Of a DNA stretch of 64,000 nucleotides, positions 14,132 to 56,102 are shown in pieces. The stretch covers positions 39,618,001 to 39,682,000 of the forward strand of contig CM060732.1 of assembly GCA_030704615.1 (NCBI GenBank), in the 5' to 3' direction. The notes beneath the pieces are model-generated. The model had not been told where the DNA came from, made no database searches, and saw only the letters and a list, made by a program, of their open reading frames with translations. The stretch's first letter is position 1, and each line of letters begins with the position of its first letter. Position numbers and translations under genes: made by a program. This DNA comes from Takakia lepidozioides. Lineage: Eukaryota > Plantae > Bryophyta.

Positions 14132-14853
14132 CTACACCAACACATTTAGTTCGTAGTCAGCCTCTGAGCACTCCTGTGCTGACGACATCAGTCAGTTATC
14201 CACAAGACTGAAGCAAAGGCAGCACTAGTCGGGCAATAGACACTACCAGCAGAGACATACCAGTGAGGGGGCAAAGGAGGGATGACGATGGCAGACTAAA
14301 GTCCTCACCAGTGAGAGCACATGCTCGCAGTGAGTCGCATACAAACTTTTGATTCCTAGCAATATATAACAACCCGAAACAGGGGGCACACTGCTTCCAA
14401 TACAGACTCTGCAACTTTACTGCACAAAGTCACCTGAATCGATGCAAAAAGGCTACCATCTTCAGATTGTGGGCTGCAGGCCTGATCCTAGGTACTGAAA
14501 ACTAGCATCCACCCAGCAACCCAGAATACGCCCTCAAGTCTGTCAAGCTTTAAAGGTTTCATCCAAAGTTATGTTATTGTAGAATTTGCATGAAAGCAGG
14601 GCCCTAGAAATCAATAAAAGCATGCCTACCATCTCCAGCTGCTCAGTGGCTTTCTCCACATTCTAGCTACTATTTGCAAGTGGCCCTGGCCTCCCTGCAG
14701 CTGCCCATACTTATGGAGCTCTGACCCTTTCCGCCATTCGGCCAACACGTTCTTATAGAAGGAAGTAATCATAATGGATCCTTAAAAAGATGCTGAGGAA
14801 CAAGAGGTGAAGAGAAGATAAGGAAACACCCAAGATTAGAACAATATCCCTAC

Positions 14854-21749: not shown

Positions 21750-23053
21750 TCAAATTGAACCCGAACTATCTCGCTGCAGTTGTGTATGAACGTCACCGAG
21801 TCCTAATGTACATTGGTGAATGTACGTGTCCCGTTTAGGATCGCAAAACATCCTCTGAATGTAGATGTAGTAAAGATGCTTGCACGGGACAAATTTGCCT
21901 CTCTTACCAAGAGAGCTTGAGAGCGTGTTCTGAAAGTCCGGACAAGTGCAACTAGGAAAATCTCCAATGGTAATCTCATAGGTCCTGTCATGAACATCCG
22001 ATCTAGAGGTGGCCATGGTGTGCACCCGCCCATAGCCTGACAAGGGGATATTCACAATTTGGGTGACGCGACACTGCAGGGTTCTAGCAGACTTTATCTT
22101 GCACTCATTATCTACACCAGCCTCAACCCAAAATACCGCATTTCCATTCTTTTTTGTGGACCAATTGTTGTCTTGTCGAGGACATGCAGGAAAGTTGGAA
22201 GGGAAAGCCATTGGAGAAACCGGCGTTACGACAGTTGGGCCTCTCAGAAGGCGAAACCCGGCCTCCTCCAGCATGTCAATTTCCAGTTTGGAGAGTGTGG
22301 TTCCTAACTTCAGTGGCCACACGGCTGGAATTTGAGGCTTCATTATCACAGAATCCCGAACAGTCCCCATGACACAGCGCACAGTGTCATCCGGGCAGAA
22401 CCAAAACTTGTGAGGCCTAGACTCCCGCGACATGTAATGCTTGAACAAGCCGGTGAATGTCGAGGCAGGAGTTCCGCATGTCCCCTTCGAAATCTAGGCG
22501 GTGCACTTCTGAAACGAGGGTGCCCTAATAGCGACACACTTGACTTTTGATCCTTGGGAGTCCGTTCTATATGCCACATTGCCTCTGTACAGTCAGACTC
22601 CACTACCGGCAGCATGTTCTCCCCTTCTCCTCGGACTGTAGTGGTTGGAGACTCGAGAGGGAACGATGCTGAAGAAGATTCATCCACGAAAGTGGGGGGG
22701 CACAGGCACACGAGGTACCGAGAAGTTGTCCCTATCGTGGAATTGAGCAGGCCATTAACAAAGCAACGGATTTATGCCGCAAAAACATTGTCACAGCGTT
22801 CACCAAACAGCTTCGTATAGCTGATCCTAGTCTCGGTGCAGGATTCCTGGACCAGGTGCGGCTCCATTGGAACAAGAGTGACAAGCCAGAAATGACATAG
22901 GAGAAGTGGCATAGGCTTGCAATGGCAATGGTGGAGCCAAAGCACAAGATGCGATCGCTTAAGATCTAGAACTCTGACCCTGTCCTCTGTCAGGCAAACA
23001 ACTTTCATTTCGTGGGGCCTTTCAGCGATGTCGACTGGGACAAGTGGCTCCAT
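21750..23053 (-). pseudogene. SWIM zinc-finger protein remnant, probably transposon-associated
   Basis: YEITIGDFPSCTCPDF...CKHLYYIY (CxC...CxH SWIM). Upstream part broken by a frameshift (about 22545) and a stop (about 22495). Flanked by palindromes at 21047-21080 and 23457-23757. Confidence 0.7.
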
Positions 23054-24152
23054 AAAGCGACATTTTGGTGCCAGGTGCAGAAATCATCCTGCCTTTGTCG
23101 TCGCAATAACTTGCATTGAAATTACAATTGTTTGTAAACGCATCGTAACACAAGCTTGTGTCTTGGCAGCTGGAGGAGAGGGGTTTGGAAGTTATGGAGC
23201 AAACTCTTCATGACTTCAAAATCGAGGTAATTTAGCCCGATGAATCTTTCGGCACTTTCATTCGGAGGTGGAAAGAGATTGTTTGGAAGTATGCCTTCTT
23301 TCGTGAATTTGCAATAAAGGGGGGAATTCTGTGCTCTAATCTGTTCAATGCGTAGTACAATGGGGAGCAGGCAATGAAGCGAGTCAATTACAGGTTAGAT
23401 TGGAACTACATTCCCATTTGCATTTGCTTCCTTTTAGACCCGATTGCACTCTATGTTCAGGCTTGCGCTAACGCAAGTCTGATCACAGTATTTGATATGG
23501 CTACGTACCTTGGTATCACAGACGTTTTTGTGCACACCGTTAACGCAAGCCTAAACCTTGCTCTGAAACTCTTCCCCTTCTTACACTCTGTGCACTTGTG
23601 CAAATCCAAGAAAACCACAACAAGACTGACCAAGAGTGTTTTTTTATTTTATTTTATTAATATTTTTTAATATTTTTTAATTTTTTTATTTATAAAACAT
23701 TTACGAAAGGGGACTGTTTTCAGACCAGGGTTCAGGCTTGCGTTAACGCAAGCCTGACCAAGAGTGTGTTTATTTTTATTTATTTATTTTTTAATCTTTA
23801 ATTTTTTATAGGAAAGGGAACTGGTTTCAAACCAGGTGTCAAGTTATTTTACCACTAGTGTGAAACTAGCTAGGAAATAGCTAGCTTTTACATATTGACA
23901 TTTGGGATTGGCCCAAGTGTCAATCCAGGGGTCAAGGCAGATTTAGGCCCTGGAGTGGTTATCTTCACGGCAAGCGCGGGAGGCTCATCTTTCTCGAGTT
24001 GAGCCTCACCGCGCCTAGCTATGGCGCCGTAGTGTGGATTCCCCATGGCGTGGGGTGCACTTGGCTTGACTTGTATTTGAGTGATGAGGTTATATATGCA
24101 TGAGTTTATGCTTCAGATTTGTGAGCTCGTGCTTGTATCCTTCTTCTTTATC

Positions 24153-24169: not shown

Positions 24170-25596
24170 TCGTATCTGTGAGTGCCAAATACGAGTTAGT
24201 TGTAGCACTTGTGGTTTTTGCTTGAGAATGAGAGAAACCAAGTGGTTATGCAAGGAGCACCGTGGAGCTCTTGGTTGTTAGAAGCGGAGGTGATGTGGGT
24301 TACGAGGTGGTAGACCTTGGCATTCGATCTTCAGCTTCAGAGATGAAAGCACCATGCTGCAGGTAATTCCAGAGCACCTTGATGGTTTCAGATTGTGTAC
24401 ATGCATGAGCAAGCACGATTGGGAAGAGGACCAGTCAAGAGCAGGTTATAGTGGCTTTGGTGGCAAAGCTGAGAACTGGACTTGGGAATGCGAGCTTTCA
24501 TTGTGTGAAGGATTGCAAGACCAAGCGAAAGGGTTGATTTGGCTTGGGGCAAATTAGTGCACCTTGTGGAGTATGGTGAGATTGGGTTTCCATCTCGAGC
24601 TTCAGCATTGAGAGGGCTCTTGTCATGGCAAGAGCAGGGCTGGAACAGGAGCTAAGAGGTGCGGCAAGGCCATGGAATGTGCACCTAGGGTTTCAGAGCT
24701 TGGAAGAAGAGCTCTTGCACCACAAGAGAAGTGTCTTGTGGCTGGAAATGTAAGCCTTAGGGTTTCAGGAGCTTGGCAAAGGCTGTGGAGTGCTTAGTCT
24801 TGTCTTAGAGAGCATCAAGGAGCCAAGGAGCCAAGATAGGGGGCTGATATCTCTTGTGTGAAGAGGTTGCATGTGTGGAGCATGTATTCAGCTCATTGAA
24901 GCTTCCATCTTCAAGCTTGGAGGGCAAGCAAGGAAGTGGGAAGGGCTGACTTCCCTTATGCGAGGGCAATGCATGTGTGGAGCATGCTATCAGCCTGATG
25001 AAGGCTTGCACTTTCAGGTTTGTGGGTGCAAGAAATGAAGCAAAGGAGCTGATTCTCTTATGGTGAGAGTGGGGCATGTGTGGAGCATGCCTTCAGCCCA
25101 TTGAGGCTCTTGTTTTCAAGCTTTAGAGAGCTAGAACGGAAGGTCTAGGGCTGGTTTCCACTTGGAGTGAAAGAAAAGCACTTGTAGGGCCTATGTGAGT
25201 TGGGGTTTCAACTTCAAGCTTGAAGGGAGCGCAACTCTTGAAGCAGCAGGTGTAGGGGGCTGGAATAGGCTCTAAGACAGATGTTATGGCCAAGGAGAGT
25301 GCTTGAATGAGTGCTCACAAGGGCTGGGAACCAGCAGGGCTTGGTTGTTTGCCATTGAGTTTAGTGGCGTGTTTGGGGAGGCTAAGTGAGAAAGAAGGCT
25401 TGGTTTGTGGCAACCACCTCATGGCTTAGGGCTACTATGGTGGTGTGTGGGAGCCGAAAGAGCAAGAATACCTTGTTGATTTCCTCACAGCCGCCATAGC
25501 TCAGTGGAAAGAAGCCTAGAGTCCAAGAGAGACAAACCCTAGCTTGGCGTGGCTAAACCCCTTCGAGAAATGGCTAAACTGCTAGAGCGGCCATGG

Positions 25597-26660
25597 ATGG
25601 GGCTGTGACGGGCTGTGCCTGAGGCCTTTGGGGCTGTGACGGGCTGTGTCAGGCCGTGCCTGAGGCCTGTGGGGCTGTGACAGGCTGTGCCCAGTGGCCT
25701 GTGGGGCTGTGACGGGCTGTGCCCTGTGCCCTGTGGGGCTGTGACGAGCTGTGACGGGCTGTGCGGGGCTGTGACAAGCTGTGCCCAGTGGCCTGTGGGG
25801 CTGTGACAGGCTGTGCCCAGTGGCCTGTGGGGCTGTGACGGGCTGTGAGGGGCTGTGATAGGCCATGCTTGAGGCCTTTGGGGCTGTGATGGGCTGTGAG
25901 GGGCTGTGACAGGCCGTGCCTGAGGCCTTTGAGGCTGTGACGGGCTGTGAGGGGCTGTGACAGGCCGTGCCCATGGCCTTTGGGGCTGTGACGGGCTGCG
26001 CCAGTGGCCTTCGGGGCTGTGACGGGCTATGAGGGCCTGTGCCGGTGGCCTTCGGGGTCGTGACGTGCTGTGAGGGCCTGTGACGGGCTACGCCGGTGGC
26101 CTTGGGGGCTGTGAGGGGCTGTGTCAGGCCGTGCCTGAGGCATGTGGGGCTGTGACGGGCTGTGAGGGGCTGTGACAGGCTGTGCCCGTGGCCTTTGGGG
26201 CTGTGAGGGGCTGTGACAGGTTGTGCCCAGTGGCCTGTGGGGCTGTGACGGGCTGTGCGGGGCTGTGATAGGCTGTGCCCAGTGGCCTGTGGGGCTGTGA
26301 CGGGCTGTGAGGGGCTGTGACAGGCTGATCCCGTGGCCTTTGGGGCTGTGAGGGGCTGTGACAGGCTATGCCCATGGCCTTTGGGGCTGTGACGGGCTGT
26401 GAGGGGCTGTGTCAGGCCGTGCCTGAGGCCTTTGGGGCTGTGAGGGGCTGTGGCGAGCTGTGACGGGCTGTGAGGGGCTCTGACAGGCTGTGCCCAGTGG
26501 CCTATGGGGCTGTGACGGGCTGTGCGGGGCTGTGACAGGCTGTGTGGGGCTGTGATGGGCTGTGACAGGCTCTGGCGAGCTGTGACGGGCTTTGAGGGGC
26601 TGTGACAGGCTGTGCCCAGTGGCCTATGGGACTGTGACGGCTGTGACCAGTGAGCTGTGT
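25597..26660 (+). repeat. About 1.05-kb GC-rich minisatellite, 10-bp core GGGCTGTGA(C/G) with higher-order units
   Basis: Directly visible; lies in the 5' untranslated region of the inner element. Confidence 0.95.
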
Positions 26661-27396
26661 GGGCCTGTGCTGGTCTGTGGTGGCCCATGTTGACCTGTGG
26701 ACGGCCTGTGCTGACTTGTGGAGGCACTGGTGGACTGCCTAAGGACTGGCATGTGGTCTGGAAGGCCGAATTTTGAAGCTCGTGGAGGGCGGTTTGAGGA
26801 GTATCTTCATGATATTCCCATGGTCATGCAAGTGAGGGAAGAGAGGAGAGGAAGAGTGTTGGGATAAGGGCATGTTGGGGTTAGGCATTGCTTTAGCTTC
26901 TCTTCCTTGTAGTTTCCACCCTCTCATTAGGCCAAGACCTTTCCGTAGGTGGAGGCAAGAGTCAGTCCGGGTTTGGGCTGGGGTGTCCTTGCAGGAGCAA
27001 CACCGTAGAGTTGTTTTTGGTGTGGGGGAGTTATCGTTCTGATTTCTTGTGTTTGGATCCCCTCCATACCTGCATGCTTGACTGTGCGCCATGCTAGTTT
27101 TGTGTGGGCGCTTGTTTTTATAGGTGATTGGTCCGGATTTGATCACCGGCCAGTCCTAGAGCATGATGTCGATGGTGAGGCTGGGGTGATGACCAGCCAG
27201 ACCATCATTGTTTCTCCTGTGGTGAGGTTGGAGGTGATGACCAGCCAACCATAGGAGTGCTTGCGGTGGATGCAGGTACAGGTGTAGGCTATGTTAGGAA
27301 CTTAGTATTCCAAACCATAAGCCGCAACAGGTTCTCTACCCGGTTACCTTGTAGAGAGGGGGTTAGGGACATGTTCATGACCGGTTGAGTGTCAAC

Positions 27397-29030
27397 ACGG
27401 AGGTGCCACTAGTTGCTGGGGACAGTGCCGGTTTGAGCACTAGCGATACTAGTGGGTACACGAGACTAGGTGTGCGGTTTAGGCCACCTTCACCTCCTGT
27501 GTCTTCCACGGAAGGTTCTGATTCGGATTGTGAATCAGGAGGACTCATACCGGCGGTGCAAGTTGTTTCTTTGCCATTGTTGTGGGACACAATGGAGGAG
27601 ATATATGGAGCTACCAAGGGGCCACAAAGGTACTCTGGGGCGGTGGGCACCATCGAGTTGGATGATTTTATCCAAGAGTTTGATAGTTGGTGTGATTTGC
27701 AGCAAATGCGCAATCCACAACTATTTACGCCGTTCATGGCATGGAAAGGGCTGTTTCAGCACCTTGAGGGGCCGCCTATGGATGATTACCATGAGTTCAG
27801 ACGGGGGCATGAGGTTGAGATCGAGGAGTGGAGGATGTACTGGTCACCCGACTATGTCTCCATCACTAGGGGCACTAGAGCCACGAGGGCAGTGGCTACA
27901 CCTGCCGCTGCACTGGCAACTTCAGCAAGTAGCAGAGGGACTACTGGGACTGGTGGTACAGTAGCTACGACGTCCACCCAAGCCACTACCGCACCAGCAC
28001 TAGTACCCGTGCCTGCCTTCAACCCTGTTGTGGAGTTCTTCGAAGAGTTGAGAGGGAACTACCAAGGGGTGAGGACAGAGAAGTTGCGGAGCTTGCAAGA
28101 GTTCCAACGGAAGCCGACCGAGAGCTTGAGGGAGGCTTTCACTCGCATGAGGCGCTTGATAAATGTAACCCAAGGGGTTACGGAAGCTCAGGCAGTCCAA
28201 TTCTGGTATGGGATATTGGACAAGGAGCTGAGGAGAAGGGTGCGGGATGCAACTCTCCTACAAGCGGCCCAACCCACCTTAGCAAATGTGTTTTTGCTGG
28301 CAGAGCGGATAGAGCTCAACATGGTGGAGGAACGAGTGGTCATGGTGGGATTTGCTAAGGAGACACCATGGGGTAGTGGTGCTCCTAGCCAACCACTACC
28401 TCAACGTGCTCAAGGCAACAAGGGGGCTCAGGTGAAGCTCAGGGAAGGGCAGAGAGGACCTCAGATGCAAGGGTCTCTCCCTTCATTAGCTGGCCAACAA
28501 CGGGCGGAGGTGGTGTGCTGGACATGTGGAGGACCCCATGTCAAGAAGGATTGCCCAGAGGGAGGCAAAGGGTCGGCACATGCACAGCCTGCACAGTTGC
28601 AGTGTGGGCATTGTGGCAAGCATGGGCATGGAGAGGCCCAGTGTTATGGTTTGCATCCTGAGTTGCGCCCAGGTCAGTTCCAAGGGAACAATGGTGGCCG
28701 GGGGCGAGGTGGAGCAGCCCAGAGAGGACGAGGTGGCCAGCCACAAGGCCAAGGGCAAGCTCAACGTGGCCAAGGACGCGGAGGTCAGGGTGTTGACCAA
28801 GGCATGGCCAACCGGCTTCAGCAGCTAGAGCAGAGGCTCGCTGCCATGGCTACAGCTCAAGTGGTACCGGCTCTAAGGCCGGATGGTCCACCTCCTGCTC
28901 CTGAGGGAGGAGATATGGGAGGCATGGGATTCATGTGTGGAGCAGCACTACCACTAGTGCAGGTGGAGTCTGCTGCAGCCGTGACTCGAGGAGCAGCACG
29001 AGTTCCTGAGCCACGAGGTGCAGAGGTGAG
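27397..29030 (+). CDS. gag: Retrotransposon Gag with two zinc knuckles (start codon is ACG here, ATG in the outer copy)
   Basis: Gag core (FQRKPTESLREAFTRMRRL), CWTCGGPHVKKDC and CGHCGKHGHGEAQC, RGG-rich tail; frameshifted after about 29030. Confidence 0.88.
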
Positions 29031-29224
29031 TTGGATCCACAGCGTGGGGAGGCAAGCCGTCAGGCTAGGCTTCCTCAGTCATTCACATTGGCGGAGACAG
29101 TGTCGACGCCATCCATGGCACCTAGTTCTCGCCCGACGGTTACCGAGGCGGAGGTTACTATGCCATTGGGGAGAGCTACACGGTAGCACCACTACCTAGT
29201 GTTGCCAAGGCTGCGGCAGCTAGT

Positions 29225-29900
29225 GTGCTGCTAGGAGCGGCCACATCTGTGTGCCAGGCTCCATTGTTCTCGGCTACCATGATTGCGACGCCGGGGGTAA
29301 AACCAGCTGAGGTGTTCAAGCTGGCAGCTACACTCTGTGAGAGTGGGGAGGTTACTTCATCTTCTGCGGAGATAGTGGGAGGTGTAGTGCCAGAGGGATC
29401 CTCGGATTTGAGGGTCAAGACTGCCACGGCGGCGCCATGGCAAGCTGCAGCTGTCAGGTTGATGGAGCTGCCAGCTAGGCCAGCCATTGAGCGCGCCATG
29501 GTGACACCTGGAGTTGTCATGTTAGACAACCGGGATGGCATTTTCTGTTTGAGTGGACCGGCAGGCAAGAGGTACCGGCCACTGCGGGTCTTGTTGGACT
29601 CGGGAGCTCAGCCATTGATGCTGGGCAGAGCTGCTATTGCAGGCTTGGGCCTCACGGAGGCGGATATGGAGCCTTGTCCTTTCCAGATACAGACGTCTCT
29701 GGGAGATCGGAGCAGGCTCGGGGCATGACACGGCGTGAGTTGGCTATCAGACTACGGCCGGATCACCCTACAGATGGCTCAGTGATGCGAGCCAAGGCCA
29801 TTGTGACAGACGCGGTCTCATACGATGTCCTGGTTGGTGGGGCAGTGTTGTACCCCATGGGCTTCACCCTGGATTTTTGGGAGGAGTCAGCTTCCTATAG
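29225..29900 (+). pseudogene. Retroviral-type aspartic protease domain (frameshift at about 29700)
   Basis: RVLLDSGAQ active site and downstream YDVLVG motif. Confidence 0.85.
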
Positions 29901-30297
29901 GCCTGCATGGCAGTCAGGGGAGGGCCGGCGTGTGCAGCTTCCTGTGACGTTCATAGGAGGAGTTGCGGTTGCCCAGCGAGGCAAGATGCCGACACTAGCA
30001 GCATTCACAGCGGCAGTGAGTTGGCCTAGAGAGTTGCTTGAGGGCAATGCTCATTTAGAGGATGTACCACCTCCGGGAGAGCAGGATGACATGTATGGTA
30101 TGGCGGAGTTGCCTACCATGGTTGCTCAGACTCCATTGTGGGGCACGAGCAAGGATTTGCAGCGGGATGCTGATCGATGGGTGCAACAAGCCTGGGTGGA
30201 GGCTTTTGTACCGTCAGGAGAGGAGGAGAGTGTGGGGATTGCACCAGGACCACCTCAATTGTCTCCATTGGACACCACACCTATTGTGTGGCAGTAT

Positions 30298-31270
30298 CCG
30301 GATGAAGGCATTTGTCTTCTGGACTTGTTTGGCGGGATCAGCACCGGATTGGCTGCTGTGTTACAAGCAGGTGTACGAGTTCGGCGTTACTTGTATGTGG
30401 AGAGGGATGAGACTGCACGACGCGTTTCACTTTGCCATGTTGCTCAGTTGGTGCAGCGGTACCCTGAGTTGTTGTCGGTGTCTGCAATTCGTGGATATCA
30501 GCAGGCCTTGCCAGCAGACATTTCGTTGCTGGGGGCGCAGGATTTGGAGCGGGTTGGCTCCATGATCTGGTAGTGGCAGGTTGGCCCTGCCAAGGGCATT
30601 CATCAGCCGGGCATGGCAATGGATTGCGAGACTCGAGGTCGGGTCTGTTTTGGGAGATGGTGCGGGTTTTGCGCCACTTGCAGCTTCATCAAGCTGTATC
30701 TCCAGCATACATCTTGGAGAATGTGCCACTGATGGGCGATTCTCGGGCCAGGGTGATGGCCAGTGTGCATCAAGTCCGGTCGTGGCTTGGGTCAGCAGTG
30801 TTGCTAGATGCAGCTACAGTGGGGTCACGGGCTCATCGTCCACGGCTATGGTGGACTAACTTGATGCCACCCGCACTGCTCAAGCGTGCATTTGATGGGG
30901 TGTAGCGGCCAGCACATCTCACAGTGGATAACATTCTGGACACAGGGAGGCACTCTCAGCGTGTGAGACACGATGACCGTTCGCCTTTGGCAGTGGTCAA
31001 CAAGGTGGGTCAACCACGAGCAGCATTACCTACACTGCTCAGCTTCCCAGGATCGCATGCTTTCCGGGATAGTGGACCTGGCCTCCTGTGGGATGCTCAG
31101 TTGCAGCAGTTAGTGGAGCCTAATGCTGACGAGCGTGAGCGGGCAATGGGTTTTACCACTGGTACTACGGCGGTGTCGTGTCTTTCTGAGGCATCACGTC
31201 GTCAAGTGTTGGGGCAAGCAATGGATCTCAATTGCTTGACCTGGATTATCAGCTTGGCTCTGGCTGAGCA
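30298..31270 (+). pseudogene. DNMT3-like C5-cytosine DNA methyltransferase domain inside the retrotransposon polyprotein
   Basis: Motif I LLDLFGGISTG, II YVERD, III ADI, IV DLVVAGWPCQGHS (catalytic PC), VI YILENV, VIII AHRPRLWWTN, IX ERERAMGF, X RRQVLGQAMD, in canonical order. 1-nt frameshift at about 30563 and TAG at 30903. Confidence 0.93.
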
Positions 31271-31556
31271 ACGCAGAGTGCGGAGTACACTTCCCTCAAT
31301 GGTCTCTCTGCCTACCGAGACGATACAGGCAGTGAGTGGGGGCGAGCATGTGAGGACCACGGGGTGCATGCATCCATGGCACACGTGGGAGGTGCTCGAG
31401 GTTCAGAGGGAGTTGGCAGCCAAGGCGGCTGTGATGGATGAGGTTGGGGATTCTTCTCGGATTGAGGAGGTCCTCAAGGATGAGATGATGGGGCAGGATG
31501 AGGCCTTGTCATTGACTGAGCAGGCAGGGAGTACTGCTCAAGAGGTTGCAACATAG

Positions 31557-32960
31557 CAACCACTGGACGTGTCCTCTACCTCTAAGCCCACTGGACTTAA
31601 GGTTGCAGTTACGGAGGACAATTGGGAGCCTGACATTGGACCCATTGTCACCGAAGGAGAGAGACGACGTATACGGCGGTTCCTGAGGGCTTACAGGAAT
31701 TGCTTTGCCTTCAGTTTGAAGGACTTGGGAGCACTGAAGGGTCAAGAGATCCGTATTGAGTTGGCCACTGACACGCCAATCTTTCGGAGACCCTATAGAT
31801 ACAGTGACATGGAGAGGTCTTTGATTCAGATGAGGACTCAAGATCTCTGGGAGGCAGGTTTTGTGGAGCTCTCTGGTGGAGAGTATGCTTCAGCCACAGT
31901 GATGCCAGCCAAGAAGGATGTCTATGGCAATTGGACGGAGAGACGTATGTGCGGTGATTACCGGCCTGTAAATCAGCACTTTGGATTTACGATCCGGATA
32001 TCACCAGTTGTCAATCAAGGAGGCGGACAAGCAGAAGACGGCATTCTGGGGGATCAATGAGCACGGCAAGGATTGCCTATATCAGTGGCGGTTCTTACCA
32101 TTTGGGCTTAAGAATGCTCCTACAGAGTTTCAGAGAGTCATGGATAGGATTCTAGCAGGGGTGGACTTTGCTCGGTGCTACATAGATGACATCATCATCT
32201 TTAGTGTTACGATGGAGGAGCATGAGAGACACCTTCAGGTGGTATTGGAGCGCTTGAGAGCGCACGGATTGAAGTTGCATCCGGGGAAGTGCAAGTTTTT
32301 CCACAACCAGATTGAGTATCTGGGTCACATGATATATCCTGGAGGATTGGGGGTACAGCAGACTAAGGTAGAGGCCATTGCACAAATTCCACGCCCCACG
32401 GATGTGAGCCGAGTTCGAGCTTTCATGGGGTTGGCAAACTATTATAGACGGTTTGTCAAGGGATTTAGTACCATTGCAAAGGCTCTAACCAAGCTGACCA
32501 AGGTGGACCAGGAGTGGCAGTGGGAAGATGAGCAGGAACAAGCTTTTCAAGAGCTCAAGGCGAGGTTGACCTCGGCGCCTATCCTGAGACGACCTATCAG
32601 GGGGCGTCCCTTTCAGCTGCATACGGATTGGAGCATGCTGGGGCTTGGAGCGGTGCTCACATAGGTGGATGATGAGGGAAGAGAGTTTGTAGTGGCTTAT
32701 GCTAGCCGCTCAAACAACGCTGCAGAGGCTAAGTACAGCTCATATGAGGGAGAGTGCTTAGCTGCAGTGTGGGCCGTGGCACACTTCAGGTGCTATCTAT
32801 ACGGCAATCTTTTCACCCTTGTCACGGATCACCAGCCACTCAAGTGGTTGATGGAGTCAGACAAGCTTACGGGGAAGCTTGCACGGTGGGCACTTATACT
32901 CCAGGAGTATGACTTTCAGGTTGTGCATCGACCGGGTTTGGTCAATCGGGATGCGGATGG
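31557..32960 (+). pseudogene. pol: Gypsy reverse transcriptase and RNase H
   Basis: RRPYR, RMCGDYRPVN, DLRSGYHQ, LPFGLKNAP, CYIDD, YLGH; RNase H LHTDWS...ECLA...TDHQPL...DGLS. Deletion/frameshift at about 31975, TAG at 32662. Confidence 0.93.
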
Positions 32961-33063
32961 ATTGAGTCGCAATCCATGCATGAGCCAGCAGGATGACACT
33001 GGAGCTCGGTGGCATGGTGAGACGGACGAGGAGATGGTGCCGGGATGACACGCATCTGCATTT

Positions 33064-34614
33064 TTGTGTATCTTGGCATCGGGAGGTCAGATTGGACCTA
33101 CAACAGGGATGACTGTAGACGGAGTGTCTGAGGACCCTAAGCCTAGTGATGAGCTAGGTGGTGCCAAAGATATACATAAGGATTCGGCTGTGTTGGACTA
33201 CCTCCGCACAGGAGACACGGCAGCCATTGTGACTGCCAGGGAGAGGGATCGGATCCTGCAACGAGCCAAGAGGTTCAAGTGGGAGGGGATACACCTACTT
33301 CGAGTGTGGGAGGATGGTCGGGTGCGGATTGTGCCTCAACCCACACAGCGTGCACGGTTAGTGCGGCATGCCCATGAGGAATTGGGGCATTTTGGAGTGC
33401 GATGCACTCACAGTTTACTGCAGGGGCAGTATTGGTGGCGTGGTATGCATACAGAGGTGCAACAGTTCGTGGCTAGGTGCATGGTGTGTGACAGGGTGTG
33501 TGCTTCATTCAACGCCCCTATACCACAGTTGCATCCTTTACCAATCATGGGATTGGGCTACAGGTGGAGTCTTGACTTCGCAGGACCGTTGCCACTGACT
33601 ATGCGCCACCACAGATATGTGTTGGTGATGGTGGAGCACTTCTCCAAGTGGATTGAGTTGGTTCCATTGTCTGACAAGGCTAGTGAGGGGGCTGCGTATG
33701 CATTCTTGGATCGTGTGCTTAGCCGATTTGGTGCTCCAGCTGAGGTACTCACGGACCAAGGGAGAGAGTTCTTGGGGGAGTTTCAGGCTTTGTGTGATAA
33801 AGCCTTGATAGACCACCGCACCACTTCTCGGGATCATCCTGAGGCCGATGGCTTGGCAGAGAGAGTTGTTCAGACGGTGAAGAGGGGTTTGCGCAAGTAT
33901 GGCTTGCAGAAGGGACACCTAGGAGATTGGGATCTTCAGGTTCCTTGGTTAGCCATGGGCTACAGGTTCAGCAAACAAGCATCACTTGCCTCCTTCTCAC
34001 CATATTTCCTTCTCTTTGGCCGAGAGCCGGATTTGCCTGCAGCCATTCGTAGGGACACTGCTCAAGTCCTTAACCTTGACAATCCGGACGTGTGGGTATG
34101 TGCATGTGATCAGCGTGCAGAGTTGTTCAAGAAAGTCATGCCCATGGCTTTTGAGAACCTTGCCATTGCACAGCACCGTGATACGTTGAGGTATGCCACT
34201 ATACGTGGTGGAGGATATCGTCCTGGGGTTCGGAGGTTTAGCCCTGGTGACTATGTTTATTTGCAGCAGACTGCTCCTACGACTCTGGATGTTACTGCAG
34301 GGCGTGTTATTCTGAGGGTTCGAGAGGTGTTGCCCTCAGGGGTCCTGATCTTGGAGGGTCGGGATGGCATGACTTGGAAGGACCATGTGTGTAATTGTGC
34401 GCCATGTCACCTTCCCAATGTCGATGGCAGAGTTGACCCAAACTTGGCAATGGTACTTGCAAGTTTGAGGTGCATGCTCTGTGGGTTTGCCAAAGGGGCA
34501 GCCACTATGCTGGTGTGTGATCGATGCTCAAGGGGTTGGCATATGGGATGCTTGACACCACCTCTTGAGAAGGTTCCTGACGGAGATTGGTTGTGTCCAC
34601 ACTGCTTGGGATAG
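33064..34614 (+). CDS. DDE integrase with C-terminal PHD finger
   Basis: HHCC (HEELGH...CMVC), D-D-E (WSLDF, LTDQG, AERV); C4HC3 PHD CMLC...VCDRC...HMGC...WLCPHC at about 34471-34605. Confidence 0.93.
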   Translation: MCILASGGQIGPTTGMTVDGVSEDPKPSDELGGAKDIHKDSAVLDYLRTGDTAAIVTARERDRILQRAKRFKWEGIHLLRVWEDGRVRIVPQPTQRARLVRHAHEELGHFGVRCTHSLLQGQYWWRGMHTEVQQFVARCMVCDRVCASFNAPIPQLHPLPIMGLGYRWSLDFAGPLPLTMRHHRYVLVMVEHFSKWIELVPLSDKASEGAAYAFLDRVLSRFGAPAEVLTDQGREFLGEFQALCDKALIDHRTTSRDHPEADGLAERVVQTVKRGLRKYGLQKGHLGDWDLQVPWLAMGYRFSKQASLASFSPYFLLFGREPDLPAAIRRDTAQVLNLDNPDVWVCACDQRAELFKKVMPMAFENLAIAQHRDTLRYATIRGGGYRPGVRRFSPGDYVYLQQTAPTTLDVTAGRVILRVREVLPSGVLILEGRDGMTWKDHVCNCAPCHLPNVDGRVDPNLAMVLASLRCMLCGFAKGAATMLVCDRCSRGWHMGCLTPPLEKVPDGDWLCPHCLG

Positions 34615-34863
34615 TGGCAGTGGACATGACTGGAGGCAGCTAACAAGACATGGGAGGCCAAGCTCATAGGAGTCAATACATGAGATCCCATGCTCAAGTT
34701 CACAGGTTGCAAGACAGCGACTAATGATGGGGCAACTCTTGCACCCGGCCTCTTGATCTATCGAGTTTGAGTGTAGTAGGGATAATGGTGGAGGACTTAG
34801 TGAGGCTATGGTCACTATCACATCTTGTGGCTACCTGGACTTAGAGGGACCTAAGCACCAGCT

Positions 34864-34874
34864 AGGGGGGCGAT
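34864..34874 (+). promoter_or_regulatory. Polypurine tract-like plus-strand priming site
   Basis: AGGGGGGCGAT immediately before TGTG at 34875; GGGGGCGAT-TGTG also occurs at 20977-20965 on the minus strand. Confidence 0.65.
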
Positions 34875-35411
34875 TGTGTGGACTAGTGACTGCCATAGTG
34901 GGCAGCATAGTGGCAGCCTAGTGACTGACTAGTTGTAGCCTAGTGGTTGGACTAGTGGCTGGACTAGTGGTGGACTAGTGATATACTAGTGTGTGGTGTG
35001 CACATGTGTTGTGTGGTTTTGGACAGCGATGTAGTTGTGTAGCGATATGTATGCGCACGACAGCTGTCAAGTTATTTTACCACTAGTGTGAAACTAGCTA
35101 GGAAATAGCTAGCTTTTACATATTGACATTTGGGATTGGCCCAAGTGTCAATCCAGGGGTCAAGGCAGATTTAGGCCCTGGAGTGGTTATCTTCACGGCA
35201 AGCGCGGGAGGCTCATCTTTCTCGAGTTGAGCCTCACCGCGCCTAGCTATGGCGCCGTAGTGTGGATTCCCCATGGCGTGGGGTGCACTTGGCTTGACTT
35301 GTATTTGAGTGACTTGCAACCTGTGAACTTGAACCTGAGATCTCGGGTATTGACTCCTATGAGCTTGGCCTCCCATGTCTTGTTAGCTGCCACTAGTCAT
35401 ATCCACTCCCA

Positions 35412-38400
35412 CTATCCCAAGCAGTATGGACATAACCAATCTCCATCATGAACCCTCTCAAGAGGTGGTGTCAAGCATCCCATGTGCCAACCTCTTGAGC
35501 ATCGATCACACACTAGCATAGTGGCAGCACCACGAGCATGCCCCAACTCTTCATTGGCATGCCGCACTAACCGTGCACGCTGTGTTGGGTGAAGCACAAT
35601 CCTCACCCGACCATCCTCCCACACTCGAAGCAGGTGTATCCCCCTCCTTGGCAGTCACACTAGCTGTCGTGTGTCCAGTGCGGAGATAATCCATCACAAC
35701 TGAATCCTCATGTATATCTCTGGCACCACCTGACTCATCTTTAGCCTCAGGGTCCTCAGACACTCTGTCTACAGTCATCCCTGTTATAGATCCAACCTGA
35801 CCTCCCGATGCCAAGATACACAAAAAGACAGATGCATGCCATCCCGGCATTATCTCCTCGTCCGTCTCACCATGCCACCGAGCTCCAGTGTCATCCTGCT
35901 GGCTCGTGCATGGATTGCGACTCAATCCATCCGCATCCCGATTGACCAAACCCGGTTGATGCACCACCTGAATATGTCTCTCATGCTCCTCCACCGTAGC
36001 ACGAGAGGCAAAGCAATTCCTGTAAGCCCTCAAGAACCGCCGTATACGTCGTCTCTCTCCTCCAGTGACAATGGGTCCAATGTCAGGCTCCCAATTGTCC
36101 TCTATAACTGCAACCTTAAGTCCAGCAGACTTAGAGGTAGAGGACGCGTCCAGTGGTTGCTATGTTGCAACCTCTTGAGAGTACTCACTGCCTGCTCAGT
36201 CAATGACAAGGCCTCATCCTGCCCCATCATCTCATCCTTGAGGACCTCCTCAACCTGAGATGAATCCCCAACCTCATCCATCACAACCACCTTGGCTGCC
36301 AACTCCCTCTGAACCTCGAGCACCTCCAATGTGTGCCATGGATGTCTGCACCTTGTGGTCCTCACCGGCTCACCCCCACTCACTGCAAGTACCGTCTCGG
36401 TAGGCAGAGAGACCGTCAAAGGAAGTGCACTCCGCACTCTACGTTGCTCAGTCATAGCCAAACTGATAATCCAGGTCAAGCAATTGAGATCCATCGCTTG
36501 TCCCAACACCTGACGACGTGATGCCTCAGAAAGAGAAGGCACCGCCGTGCTCCTAGTGGAAAAACCCATAGCCCGCTCTCGCTCGTCGGCATTAGGCTGC
36601 ACTAACTTCTGCAACTGAGCATCCCACATGAGGCCGGGTCCACTATCCAAGAAAGCATGTGATCCTGGGAAGCTGAGCAGTGTAGGTAGTGTTGCTCGTG
36701 GTTGACCCACCTTGTTGACCACTGCCAAAGGTGAACGGTCATCGTGTCTCACACGCTGAGACTGCCTCCCCGTGTCCAAAATGTTATCCACTGTGAGGTA
36801 TGTTGGCCGCTACACCCCATCAAATGCACGCTTGAGCAGTGCGGGTGGCATCAAGTTAGTCCACTATAGCCGTGGACGTGAGCCCGTGACCCCACTGTAG
36901 CTGTATCCAGCAACACTGCTGACCCAAGCCACGACCGGACTTGATGCACACTGGCCATCACCCTGGCCCGAGAATCGCCCGTCAGTGGCACATTCTCCAA
37001 GATGTATGCTGGAGATACAGCTTGATGAAGCTGTAAGTGGCGCAAAACCCGCACCATCTCCCAAAACAGACCCGACCTCAAGTCTCGCAATCCATTGCTA
37101 TGTCCGGCTGATGAATGCCCTTGGCAGGGCCAACCTGCCCCTACCAGATCAATGGAGCCAACCCGCTCTAAATCCTGCGCCCCCAGCAAAGAGATGTCTG
37201 CTGGCGAGGCCTGCTGATATCCACGAACCGCAGACACCGACAACAACTCAGGGTACTGCAGCACCAACTGAGCAACATAATGGAGTGAGATGCGTCGTGC
37301 ACTCTCATTCATCTCCACATACAAGCAATGCCGTACCCGTACATCTGCCTGTAGCACAGCAGCCAATGGTGCTGATCCCGCCAAACAAGTCCAGAAGGCA
37401 AATGCCTTCATCCGGACACTGCCACACGATCGCACCCCGTGGCTGAGGAACTCGTGCTGCTCTTCGAATCACTGCCGCAGCTAATTCCAGTTGCACTAGT
37501 GGTAGTCCTGCCCTGCACATAGTGGTAGTGGTAGTGTTGCCCGACACTAGTAGTAGTGGTGCCCCACCCACAGTGGTAGTGGTAGTGGCACCCCTCACCA
37601 GTGGTAGTGGTGCCCCACCCATAGTGGTAGTGGTAGTGGTAGTGGCACCTCTCACTAGTGGTAGTGCTACCCCGCACATGAATCCCATGCCTCCCATGTC
37701 TCCTCCCTCAGGAGCAGGAGGTGGACCATCCGGCCTTGGAGCCGGTACCACCTGAACTATGGCCATGGCAGCGAGCCCCTGCTCTAGCTGCTGAAGCCGG
37801 TTGGCCATGCCGTGGTCAACACCCTGACCTCCGCGTCTTTGGCCATGTTGAGCTTGCCCTTGGCCTGCACGTCGTGCCTGGCCACCTCGTCCTCTCTGGG
37901 CTGCTCTACCTCGCCCCCGGCCACCATTGTTCCCTTGGAACTGGCCTGGGCGCAACTCAAGATGCAAACCATAGCACTAGGCCTCTCCATGCCCGTACTT
38001 GCCACAATGCCCACACTGCAACTGTGCCGGTGCCAAACCATTTCCTCCCTCTGGGCAATCCTTCTTGACATGGGGTCACCACATGTCCAACACACCACAT
38101 CCACCCGTTGTTGGCTTGCAAATGAAGGGAGAGACCCCTGCATCTGAGGTCCTCTCTGCCCTTCCCTGGGCTTCACCTGAGCCCCCTTGTTGCCTTGAGC
38201 ACGTTGAGGTAATGGCTGGCTAAGAGCACCACTACCCCTTGGGTTACAATAATCAAGCGCCTCATACAAAGCCTTTCTCAAGCTCTTAGTAGGCTTCCGT
38301 TGGAACTCTTGCAAGCTCCTCAACTTCTCTGTCCTCACCCCTTTGTAGTTCCTTCTCAACTCTTCAAAGAACTTCACAATAGGGTTGAAGGCAGGCACAA

Positions 38401-38983
38401 CCACTGGTGCTGGTGCAACAGTAGTTTGGGTGGACGTCGTAGCCTTTGTACCACTAGTCCCACTGCTACTCACTGGTGCAGCTGCCGGTGTGGCTGCTGC
38501 CCTTGTCCCTCTAGTGATGGAGACATAGTCGGGTGACTAGTACATCCTCCACTTCTCGATCTCAACATCGTGCCCCCGCCTAAACTCATGGTAATCATCC
38601 ATGGGCGGCCCCTCAAGGTGCTGAAACAGCCCCTTCCATGCCATGAAAGGCGTAAATAGTTGTGGATTGCGCATTTACTGCAAGTCACACCAACTATCAA
38701 ACTCTTGAATGAAATCATCCAACTCAATGGTGCCTACCGCCCCAGAGTACCTTCGTGGCCCCTTGGTGGCTCCATACATCTCCTCCATTGTGTCCCACAA
38801 CAATGGCAAGGAAACAACTTGCACCGCCGGTGTGAGTCCTTCTGATTCACAATCCGAATCAGAACCTTCCGTAGAAGATACAAGAGGTGAAGGTGGCCTA
38901 AACCGCACACCTCGTCTCGTATACCCGCTAGTATCGCTAGTGCTCGTACCGGCACTTTCCCCAGCAAGTAGTGGCACCTCCAT
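35412..38983 (-). pseudogene. Deleted gag-DNMT-PHD coding remnant of the outer element (PR, RT, RNase H and integrase core removed)
   Basis: Homologous to 27397-34614. Junctions PRGA|IVWQCPDEGICLLDLF, CFA|SRATVEEHERHIQV|VHQPG and EELGH|ARGAATMLVCDRC. DNMT motifs I-X at about 36440-37430. Confidence 0.9.
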
Positions 38984-41545
38984 GTTGACAAACTGACACT
39001 CAACCGGTCATGAACCTGTCTCTAACCCCCTCTCCACAAGGTAACCGGGTAGAGGACCTGATGCAGCTTATGGTTTGGAATACTAGGTTCATAACATAGC
39101 CTGCACCTGCACCTGCATCCACCACAGGCACTCCTATGGTTGGCTGGTCATCACCTCTAACCTCACCACAAGAGAAACAAAGATGGTCTGACTGGTCATC
39201 AACCCAGCCTTACCATCGACAGCATGCTCTAGGGTTGGATCGGTGATCAAGCCCGAGTCAATCACCTATAAAATCAAGCGCCCACACAAAACTAGCATGG
39301 CGCACAATCAAGCATGCAGGTGTGGAGGGGATCTAAACACAAGAATGAGAACAACAACTCCCTCACACCAAAAACAACTCCACAATGTCGCTTCTGCAAC
39401 CCAACCCAAACCCGAACTGACTCTTGTCTCTACCTACGGAAAGGTCTCGGCCTACAGAGAAGGTGGAAAGCTACGAGGAAGGGAAGCTAAAGCAATGCCT
39501 ATCCCCAGCACGCTCTCATCCCAACACCCTCTTTTTTTCTCTCTTCTCTCACTTGCATGACCATGAGAGCATCTTGTGGATACTCCTCAAACCGCCCTCC
39601 ACAAACTCATGAAACTTGGCCTCCAAGGCCCCATGCAAGCCTCCACAGATCCGCCAGTGTCTCCTTACGTCCACCAGTCATTCCTCAAAACGGAACCACC
39701 TCAAGAAACCACGCCATCCACTGAAGGTTCAAAAATGGAGCAGATAGAGGTACATATAGGCCCCAACAACATTCTGTCCAAAAGAATTACCTGCAGGCTG
39801 GTCTCCCCCATAGTTAAGAATTGGGTTGAAAACCCCAAAAGATTATCTGCAGGGAAGTAAACCTTTTTGTTAAAACGCAACAAGGAGGCAATTCCGACTT
39901 TTCTGCCGGATTAGCTAGCTCAAAACCATTGTTCTTCAGAGCCCAGCCTCCCCATCAAGGTCCCACGAAACGAGTGAAAAAATGTTTGTTTTTTGTTTTT
40001 GTTTTTTTTTTCACTCTGGCTGTTCGCGGCCATACGTGGCTCCAACCGCCACGACCCCTCACGGCCCACCCTAGGCGCTCGTTGGCCACGGGCTGCCCCG
40101 TGATACCCCGTGGTACCACGCCCACGAGCCTTCACGGCCCGCCATCCCCACGATCTGGTCACTTTGCCCACCCGTGGTGTCCGTATCACGGCTTCCCACG
40201 GTCATGGTCAATGGTCACGGTCAACAGTCATGGCCTGGGCTCGTGGTATCTTGTGATACCGCCCCCACGGCCCATCACGGCCACTGTTTCTTGCGTTCCC
40301 AGTAGCTCTCCACGAGTTTCCATGCATTCCCAGACGTTCCCGAGCTCTCCCCGAGTTGGGGTTTGCTCCTACACCTGCTACCGACGAGCTATGGCTTTCT
40401 GCGGAGCCATCAGCCCCGTCGCCCTGCACTCCTGAGCTCTCATGGCCCACTAGAAGCGCCCCCAACTCAACAAGCAAGCTATATGCTGCCCAACAAGCTC
40501 TCTTTTCTTCATGAAGTTCACAAAAACAAATCTGAAAATACACGCCTTTACAACCTTGGTGTACCTGCAGTTCTACTGTACATTCGTTGGCTCTAGGACG
40601 CCTTGTTGCTGCCTTTCCAGCCCCCGCTCTTGCCACTCCAAGAGCCCTTACACTGCTGAGTTTCAAATTGAAACTCCAACTTAGCACATGTTTCACAAGT
40701 GCACTGATTTGCACACAAGATGGACCAACCCCATCTCTTCACTCATACCTCTTCATGAACTTGGAGCTGAAGCTCCCAATGGGCTGCAATGCATCCCCTC
40801 GTAGCTCCACCATTTGGCTACTCCTCATCTACCCGCAACAACTAGTTTCGGGCAGAAATACCTGGAGCTGATCATATCATCTCCAACCTACAACACGCTA
40901 GCTTCCTATGCGCAGCCCACATTTCTGCAGCTCCTCAACTCGGCCTGCAGCTCAAGAAGACGACCACAGTTCGTCCACTCGTGGCGAGCATCTCCTCCGC
41001 TTCACACTGAACCGCATACTCAGTGCCATAGCATTGAGCTATGCAACACTGACCACCTCTCTATCCATTGCAAACCTGCAACTTGTTCGCCTTTGCACTC
41101 TATCCGCTTTGGATAGGCTCATGCACGGATCCCTGCACTCTAGGCTGAACCGCTTTTCATGATCTGAAAACACAAGTGCTACAACTAACTCGAACCTGGC
41201 ACTCATAGACTCAAGCTGATCTTTCTCGAGTGATAAAGAAAGAATGATACAAGCACACAAGCTCTCTCAAACTCACATACTTGCACATGAAAACATCACT
41301 CATATATTAAGTCGAGCCAAATGCACCCAGGCCATGGGGAATCCACACTACGGCAACATAGCTAGACGCGGTGAGTCTCAACTCAAGAAAGATGAGCCCA
41401 CCGCGATCTGTCGTGAAGATAACAACGTCAGGTGCCCAAACATGTATTGGCCCTTGGATTGACATTTGGGTCAATCCCAAATGTCACTATATAAAAGCTA
41501 GCTATTTCCTAGCAAACTTCACACTAGTGGTAAAATAACTTGACA

Positions 41546-55630: not shown

Positions 55631-56102
55631 AACCTCATGGACTTCTGATCTTCTCTGTTACTTGCATTGGCTGTTCTGCAAAGTACTCCCTAAGCAAAAC
55701 AACCCATTGTATATGGCTGAGGAGGGAGCTGAGCTCTTAGATTCCTCAACAAAGGGATAGATACCTCACTCCTCTAAGGCAAAAATGGGACAACAGAGTT
55801 ATGTGTTTGTGGGGTGGACAGGATGTTGCACAGCAGGGAAGGTCTACACAGAATGTTTTACACTGTGAAATGTCATCAGTGCAGTGTAGATGCATGTGAG
55901 TGTTGGTTTTTTTGTATTTTATGGATAGGAGAATAATGGTAATGCAGCTTGTGTCAGAGTTGTATATTTGTTGCGAGAATGCACCTTCCATGGGGTGGGT
56001 AACAAAGCATGGCGAAGACATCTTTCTTTGAAATATGTCGGAACTTTGTGATATATTCTGTGAGTTCGAGCATCAGAAACTAAGAGTTTGAACTCATGCA
56101 GG

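Follow-up and report, generated by a model that had tools for sequence, protein, structure and literature searches.

Ty3/Gypsy retrotransposons bearing a DNA methyltransferase (DNMT) have been described from a single alga, as an independent acquisition in the lineage of Klebsormidium nitens (de Mendoza et al. 2018, PMC5890265). This element, KnitGypsy-Dnmt3, contains the Gypsy domain set and an intronless, unpermuted Dnmt3-like domain under purifying selection. The DNMT is encoded in the Pol open reading frame (ORF) together with the reverse transcriptase (RT) and RNase H, and the repeats have a DIRS-like arrangement, A-coding-B-A-B, according to the legend of Fig. 4c (PMC5890265). SymbioDIRS-Dnmt3, a tyrosine recombinase element of dinoflagellates, combines a Dnmt3-type domain with split repeats, and its domains methylate CG in yeast (PMC5890265). 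Transposon-encoded DNA methylases are described in a review as absent from land plants such as tracheophytes, green algae being listed as hosts (PMC6338049). Streptophyte Gypsy-DNMT3 elements are cited as previously reported, with no land-plant detail in the relevant passages, in PMC12344493 and bioRxiv 2026.05.21.726589. The DNMT3 of plant hosts, on the other hand, is a stand-alone gene with a C-terminal DUF3444 domain (PMC6453930).

The window, that is the whole stretch of 64,000 nucleotides that was analysed, contains a Ty3/Gypsy element whose family is a variant of the KnitGypsy-Dnmt3 type that lacks the single-ORF feature. The domain set, the intronless unpermuted Dnmt3-like domain, the purifying selection and the repeat layout are all shared with KnitGypsy-Dnmt3, and the K. 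nitens protein GAQ93235.1 (P0181), which is 38% identical to the window domain, has a zinc knuckle-protease-DNMT order. The window family differs in its land-plant hosts, its high copy number, a conserved stop between the DNMT and the RT, and a PHD finger; the text of PMC5890265 mentions neither a PHD finger nor Marchantia. SymbioDIRS-Dnmt3 is similar in its Dnmt3-type domain and split repeats, whereas the element described here has a DDE integrase and 4-bp target duplications. Gypsy-7a_cRei of Chlamydomonas, compared by description only, has a PHD finger in its polyprotein and LTRs described with subparts, but no methyltransferase among its listed domains (bioRxiv 2022.06.16.496473).

The family is not described in the accessible text of PMC6317226, PMC10508981, PMC10952607, PMC6673714, PMC6453930 and two bioRxiv papers. 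A literature search, mostly of papers open without subscription, returned no land-plant report of these elements or of the stop; the main supplement of PMC5890265 and the trees of PMC12344493 may include Marchantia sequences. The occurrence of the family in liverworts, Sphagnum and a probable vascular plant runs against the statement of absence in the review (PMC6338049). The original prediction for this DNA, a DNMT3-like cytosine methyltransferase within a land-plant retrotransposon, stands, and to it are added three features that it had missed: the split repeats, the PHD finger and the conserved stop.

Element 1, on the plus strand, has the order Gag-protease-C5 methyltransferase-RT-RNase H-integrase-PHD, as established from Pfam matches and six-frame translation. 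The Gag-PR-RT-RH-IN order with a DDE integrase, and the TG...CA ends (TGTC/GACA) with a short target duplication, are those of a Ty3/Gypsy element. The coding region is not enclosed by two identical LTRs, the repeats being split in the order A-coding-B-A-B. Repeat A1 (23837-24152, ends set by motif) begins with TGTC at the 5' end of the element and matches 35061-35312 at 99.6%. The long 5' leader contains a GC-rich tandem repeat array of families D1, D2 and D5 (about 25540-26700, limits approximate). Gag (27592-29020) is recognized by a weak Retrotrans_gag match (E 0.003) and by homology to the N-terminus of the Marchantia protein P0007; it has zinc-knuckle-like Cys/His motifs at 28516 and 28603, and indels relative to other copies shift its frame near 29.03 and 29.18 kb. 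The aspartic protease (29491-29940), with its catalytic DSG at 29597 and a frameshift near 29.70 kb, is homologous to a region of P0047 and P0181 that matches Asp_protease_2.

The methyltransferase (30298-31274) is followed by the in-frame stop, in the readthrough-type context TAG CAA CCA (31554-31562), 23 codons before the start of the RT homology. The RT, with YIDD at 32179, and the RNase H together occupy 31623-33045 (RVT_1 E 4e-30, RT_RNaseH E 3e-28) and are interrupted by a deletion at 31974/31975 and by stops at 32662 and 33046. The DDE integrase with its H2C2 zinc finger (33049 to approximately 34300; Integrase_H2C2 E 2e-14, rve E 7e-14) carries a PHD finger at its C-terminus (34471-34605; Pfam PHD E 7e-10). 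Repeat B1 (34866-35062), delimited by repeat alignment and end motif, starts with a G-rich tract and ends with GACA. Repeat A2 (35065-35312, from the repeat alignment) is cut short where the rearranged copy 2 resumes. At the B1/A2 junction (35059-35068) only 2 bp separate one end of the element from the other, which gives the palindrome GACA-GC-TGTC. The observed/expected ratio of CpG is 0.51 in the element and 0.32-0.39 in other genes of the window, an uninformative difference.

The C5 methyltransferase motifs follow each other in unpermuted order: FGG at 30325, GWPCQ at 30579, LENV at 30714, HRPRL at 30834, ERAMGF at 31137 and LGQAM at 31209. The domain is situated between protease and RT, as had been predicted, and the strings LLDAATVGSRAHRPRLWWTNL, ERAMGF and RRQVLG quoted at that time are found in the translation. 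The HMM check then proposed, with Pfam DNA_methylase, gives E 5e-13 for the middle piece of copy 1 and E 2e-11 for copy 2. This second copy had likewise been anticipated; it occupies about 36440-37418 of the minus strand, and 30283-31710 aligns with 37430-36006 at 92.4%. Both copies are disrupted, as stated earlier. In the first, the frame shifts near 30562 and a stop follows at 30903-30905; in the second, the frame shifts near 36880 and the internal stop recurs at 36810-36812.

The best solved-structure matches of the sequence profile are DNMT3A/B, then DRM, then HhaI/HaeIII, with no DNMT1, MET1 or CMT chain among the matches listed. The circular permutation that defines DRM is absent, motifs I to X being linear. 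Structure matches and motif order thus bear out the assignment as DNMT3-like rather than MET1/CMT or DRM. For the uninterrupted domain of locus L001, a predicted model (pLDDT 79, pTM 0.84) has only DNMT3 chains among its listed PDB matches (TM 0.65, E 5e-16); its best viral fold match has a TM of 0.60. The nearest Atlas clusters to the domain, in turn, are phage enzymes. DNMT3-like is a fair name, and the donor of the domain is not settled since phage C5 methyltransferases, at 63-75 bits, score almost as well as DNMT3A (86 bits) and DNMT3B (74 bits). The element enzyme is matched best by animal DNMT3A/B; compared with these and with the host DNMT3 (Physcomitrium DNMT3b, PMC6453930), it lacks DUF3444, PWWP and ADD and is embedded in a polyprotein. 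DUF3444 was not found in Pfam scans of the window ORFs or of seven relatives. The element domain has an insertion after motif II that DNMT3A does not have.

Across 205 domains the catalytic Cys is kept in 202, the Glu of ENV in 204 and both Arg residues of motif VIII in 200, and the SAM-binding motif is almost invariant. Loss of the catalytic residues had been named as a finding that would speak against a working enzyme, and the residues are kept. Such near-invariance suggests chemistry rather than mere binding, and it is quite likely that the enzyme acts on DNA. In 101 of the 205 domains motif IV reads Glu-Cys rather than Pro-Cys.

A domain search returned 36 longer proteins, among which the named matches are from Marchantia polymorpha, Calypogeia fissa and Sphagnum troendelagicum. 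The close relatives in Marchantia, Calypogeia and Sphagnum are 59-76% identical, and over the whole domain the window copy shares 75% identity with the Calypogeia and Marchantia proteins. These relatives support the predicted land-plant lineage, as does the PPR gene of the window, which is of the PLS class and has E/E+ motifs. The distant relatives are in Closterium, Monoraphidium, Klebsormidium nitens (GAQ93235.1) and Scenedesmus. A profile that extended into the adjoining part of the protease yielded at least 572 protein clusters (50% identity, E up to 1e-30). The position of the methyltransferase was compared in 240 proteins: it follows RNase H and precedes the integrase in 112 (the chlorophyte type, P0056-P0240), and it comes before the RT within one predicted protein in 21, two of which are Marchantia models spliced over the stop. 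Another 28 proteins, including a few truncated or spliced models, end 40-200 residues after the methyltransferase, and 79 were not classed by its position. In a sister group (P0026, P0029, P0046-P0062) the Gag-protease-DNMT proteins likewise end 100-160 residues after motif X. One protein, P0085, has a Tudor-like match after the PHD finger.

In a quick IQ-TREE analysis of 48 rows, which held no host DNMT3, the 44 element domains group against 4 phage enzymes with an SH-aLRT of 100. The window and the named land plants form a 10-row clade with a support of 100; the chlorophyte-type clade has 99 and a Klebsormidium trio 100, while the backbone is open. Tree distances of the methyltransferase and of RT-RNase H in 77 elements correlate with r = 0.64 (best of 500 permutations 0.25), and with 0.42 within the chlorophyte type, both values being inflated by shared descent. 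The correlation fits one old capture followed by moves within pol, and a single capture of the methyltransferase in early green plants is likely. The lineage extends over green plants, which makes inheritance from algal elements more probable than an origin from a host DNMT3 of the moss type. Viral contigs contained no relatives of the element and one phage-type methyltransferase at 26%; bacterial relatives were represented by phage enzymes only.

The domain belongs to the family as a whole. Contigs from the host runs were placed on 29000-35400 in 78,807 records that cover all 30 bins, a summed depth that does not equal copy number, and methyltransferase and RT are joined in a contig of 2754 nt from a different organism. 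The internal stop at 30903 is present in only about 2% of the family depth and thus represents decay. In metagenome contigs, relatives are encoded in 235 stretches, of which the best 80 were kept. These 80 loci and the window copy show the same order, with the C-terminus found in 73, the protease in 62, the RT start in 58, the integrase in 38 and the PHD finger in 26. The DNMT domains of the metagenome loci group with the named bryophyte proteins. A one-off capture of a host gene, which the original prediction had named as the outcome that would speak against it, is rejected by this common domain order across loci and host-run contigs.

The median pN between the window and the 80 loci is 0.21 for the DNMT, 0.16 for the RT (52 loci), 0.16 for the integrase (32) and 0.26 for the protease (57), at saturated synonymous sites (median pS about 0.72-0.75). 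Between families dN is about 0.2 and dS is saturated, for a ratio below about 0.1; decayed copies paired within a family have dN/dS of 0.4-1.0. The family comparison and dN/dS check proposed earlier have found long-term purifying selection rather than its absence. The methyltransferase is a fixed part of a high-copy family under long-term purifying selection.

The split repeats were surveyed in 42 loci with repeat matches. The full A-coding-B-A-B layout is present in 6 loci representing 5 distinct insertions, and the parts in the window fit it; 13 loci end with a single B and 2 show A then B. Perfect 4-bp target duplications flank L021, L027, L028/L035, L043, L044 and L056, as well as the window insertions with GGCT and GGGG; L071 has one mismatch and L051 has no duplication. 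The GACA-GC-TGTC junction is also found in L005 and L044 and, decayed, in L028, L035, L056, L073 and L074. To judge from its bases, the B/A palindrome resembles a pair of ends ready for the integrase, with two bases linking them, and a circular intermediate opened at this junction would be plausible. L027, L043 and 11 other loci are insertions of A-coding-B only, some with intact 4-bp target duplications. These could have formed by recombination between the B repeats or, alternatively, if the internal junction itself served as an end.

The element holds an internal copy of its own joined ends. The domain might be kept to bind and shield nucleic acid, for example by guarding the GACA-GC-TGTC junction or the cDNA against host nucleases and the integrase of the element, and would then methylate little or nothing in bulk. 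SymbioDIRS and KnitGypsy share the repeat layout, and no methylation by the K. nitens domain was seen in yeast (PMC5890265), as this explanation would have it. The near-invariance of the catalytic and SAM-binding residues nevertheless speaks for chemistry, and permuted A-B-A-coding-B insertions, expected if the integrase cut either junction, are absent among the 42 loci. A purely protective role is improbable.

The methyltransferase does lie between protease and RT, but it is not simply inside Pol as first described: it is on the Gag-protease side of a conserved stop. In the window, TAG CAA CCA is in frame with both the methyltransferase and the RT. Among the 80 loci and the window copy, 58 have matches to the DNMT end and to the RT start. 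Four of these were dropped for having no RT within 600 nt, and L039 and L069 for an RT that aligns from residue 27-28 only, which left 52 rows, or 44 after removal of near-identical copies. One frame is kept across the gap in 40 of the 54 sequences with both domains within 600 nt, and nearly all of these 40 have a single stop, which precedes the RT homology by 17 codons, or by 23 in the window. The junction codon is a stop in 43 of the 44 distinct copies (32 TAG and 11 TAA, with 1 TAC), followed by CAACCC in 39, CAACCA in 3 and a decayed form in 2. By comparison, the most widely shared ordinary internal stop occurs in 9 of 41 copies. The sole copy without a junction stop, L071, has TAC (Tyr), and Tyr is the residue inserted at TMV-type readthrough sites; this is a single case.

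Within the host family, no variant at or above 2% is listed at 31552-31563 among 3207 contigs, and the flanking bases 31551 and 31564 vary in 64-70% of the depth. The motif is common to three families with saturated synonymous sites and a linker that barely aligns, the only independent families that were readable as DNA, a small number that counts against the model. At the protein level, the C-terminus of Marchantia, Calypogeia and several JGI proteins, about 1250-1330 residues in length, corresponds in position to the stop. Copies with TAA are dispersed in the tree, their G-to-A share of 24% being at the upper end of background decay. Decay as the origin of the stop was rejected on the 43 of 44 copies, the invariance in the host family and the scatter of TAA.

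The simplest reading of this stop is readthrough. The env of SIRE1 is expressed by readthrough. The TMV replicase is known for the signal UAG-CARYYA with the downstream ORF in frame, a context that gives about 10% readthrough in plants (PMC2754532, PMC4132726). The window and L001 families have this signal in full, with the exact hexamer CAACCA after UAG, while the location differs from that in TMV, the stop being between the protease-DNMT part and the RT of a retrotransposon. The CAACCC of the largest family, in 39 of the 44 distinct copies, misses the last base of CARYYA, which counts against readthrough there. Minimum-energy folds after the stop contain similar long stems, with z values of only -0.3 to -1.9 against shuffled sequences, and a stimulating RNA structure was not accepted. 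Altogether, readthrough at a few to about 10% is reasonably likely on the strength of the conserved context.

The TAG ends in AG, as does a splice acceptor, which is a further point against readthrough. Ogre elements are spliced at the protease/RT boundary. The TAG might similarly be the 3' splice site of an intron, so that unspliced RNA would give Gag-protease-methyltransferase and spliced RNA would join the upstream part to RT-RNase H-integrase; the enzyme would still be in excess over the RT and might be skipped in Pol. The T and A of the junction codon are invariant in 41 of 41 copies, with changes of the G mostly of the decay type G>A, and the Marchantia gene models P0008, P0015, P0020 and P0028 place introns across the stop. 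These models, however, use different splice points. The window has no U-rich or pyrimidine tract before the TAG, and, on what would be the exon side, five bases are the same from family to family. No join at 31557 is listed, and the one contig (2173 nt) that covers the site is unspliced, weak evidence as its run is only guessed to be RNA. These points make splicing unlikely as the source of the RT.

The in-frame ATG that the largest family has 6 nt after the stop is another point against readthrough. Situated two codons past the stop in about 39-40 of 41 copies, this ATG could allow the RT to be made by termination and re-initiation. The window family, however, has CTG or CGG in its place and L001 has GTG, and the first Met of the window RT frame is well inside the RT, so that re-initiation is very improbable as the general mechanism. 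Whether the RT is reached by readthrough, by splicing or by re-initiation, the methyltransferase shares its reading frame with Gag, and the enzyme would consequently outnumber RT and integrase. The conserved stop is thus a mechanistic clue that points to Gag-like amounts of the enzyme in the particle.

By combining these observations, it is possible to outline a role for the enzyme, taking readthrough as the preferred reading. The first reading frame would consist of Gag, protease and methyltransferase and would end at TAG-CAACCA. Occasional readthrough would add RT-RNase H-integrase-PHD to form Pol. The methyltransferase linked to Gag would be packaged in excess, in many copies per particle, at the place where the cDNA is made. 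The packaged enzyme would then methylate the element's own cDNA, or its circle, before integration. If the enzyme is active, there is a little better than an even chance that cDNA or circle in the particle is its main target. The model as a whole, from first frame to methylation before integration, is tentative and stands slightly short of an even chance. The silence of the K. nitens relative in yeast, a result that its authors call inconclusive (PMC5890265), speaks against it. So does the arrangement in algal relatives, which keep the enzyme in one ORF with the RT or between RNase H and integrase, so that Gag-level amounts are not needed everywhere.

The PHD finger would act at the last step, steering integration to chromatin with unmodified H3K4 and thus away from active promoters. 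PHD fingers that read H3K4me3 have a Trp in the aromatic cage. At the corresponding position, 67 of the 75 family PHDs counted have Gly. The nearest solved PHD fingers are those of CHD4, KDM5B/5A PHD1, ATXR5 and PHF21A, which we take to be readers of unmodified H3 tails. On these comparisons, steering to unmodified H3K4 is likely.

A finger of this kind could also guide the enzyme itself, much as the ADD domain guides animal DNMT3. The enzyme would then act on host chromatin, through the integration complex or free in the nucleus, and methylate the insertion site or host DNA. The resemblance of the PHD to readers of unmodified H3, with mostly Gly at the cage position, would suit this, as would the chlorophyte-type elements, in which the enzyme directly precedes the integrase (112 of 240 proteins). 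In land plants, however, the enzyme is tied to Gag-protease and split from the integrase-PHD by the stop, and the methylome of K. nitens is ordinary and plant-like despite its elements (PMC5890265). Such an action on host chromatin is quite unlikely.

Methylation of the cDNA in the particle, as preferred here, can be placed in a wider history, which is possible but on balance doubtful as a whole. An ancient clade of split-repeat Gypsy elements of green plants might have carried the DNMT3-like enzyme since before the split of chlorophytes and streptophytes, and survive at high copy number in land plants, as far as the vascular and perhaps the seed plants. A programmed leaky stop would have been added in the land-plant branch, and with it enzyme at capsid level. 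Copies would be methylated in the particle and integrate, already silenced, into chromatin with unmethylated H3K4. The element would then be a mobile writer plus reader that seeds methylation without the RdDM or DNMT3 of the host.

Marchantia polymorpha, a genetic model with methylation mutants, has uninterrupted first ORFs of the family (e.g. Mp_4g09160), which make the role of the enzyme for the element, a question since 2018, directly testable. The land-plant range, the conserved and putatively leaky stop and these Marchantia ORFs should give a good handle on that question. Gene models of this kind can also be miscounted in annotation as host methyltransferases.

The second copy of the methyltransferase belongs to element 2 (20681-41545, minus strand), which is internally deleted and flanked by the target duplication GGCT. 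Its A1 starts at 41545, and the A2 end and B2 are at 20978-20681; element 1 and other DNA are nested inside its span. Around the methyltransferase of copy 2 the protease and most of the RT/RNase H/integrase are deleted, and the TAG CAA CCA junction (36154-36162, minus strand) is the same as in element 1. A 2.7-kb non-autonomous derivative (44321-47061, minus strand), recognized by its ends and repeat alignment, has the same ends and the target duplication GGGG. The RT-to-integrase segment is deleted both in copy 2 (35310-39664, minus strand) and in the small derivative (44446-45398), where the segment with the deletion is inverted relative to the element ends. Two host-run contigs skip from 31710 to 32918, similar to the deletion in copy 2. 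The shared deletion suggests a mobilised non-autonomous subfamily. An ORF with a weak SWIM zinc finger match (21750-23083, minus strand, E 0.004) inside element 2 is probably a piece of a MuDR-type transposon. Another ORF, at 48310-49843 on the plus strand, matches RNase_H (Pfam, E 8e-13) beside 109-110 bp repeats at 47666-47977 and is possibly another retroelement with an extra RNase H.

The PLS-class PPR gene (56064-58866, plus strand) has five 303-bp repeat units with E and E+ motifs, the E+ lying in a shifted frame, and no DYW match was found in it. Among the best 120 of 7957 matches, the one nearest to its C-terminal part is a Ginkgo protein (67%). The tree gives an SH-aLRT of 88 with the Ginkgo protein and 92 for the gymnosperm group, in a sample that held two ferns only and no named cycad, gnetophyte, horsetail or hornwort. 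By this placement the host would likely be a vascular plant. A topoisomerase I gene of more than 13 kb (915-14156, minus strand) has Topoisom_I_N at 12345-12809 and the C-terminal domain at 918-1232. Pieces of LINE RT lie between its exons at 6148-10217, as in large plant genomes.
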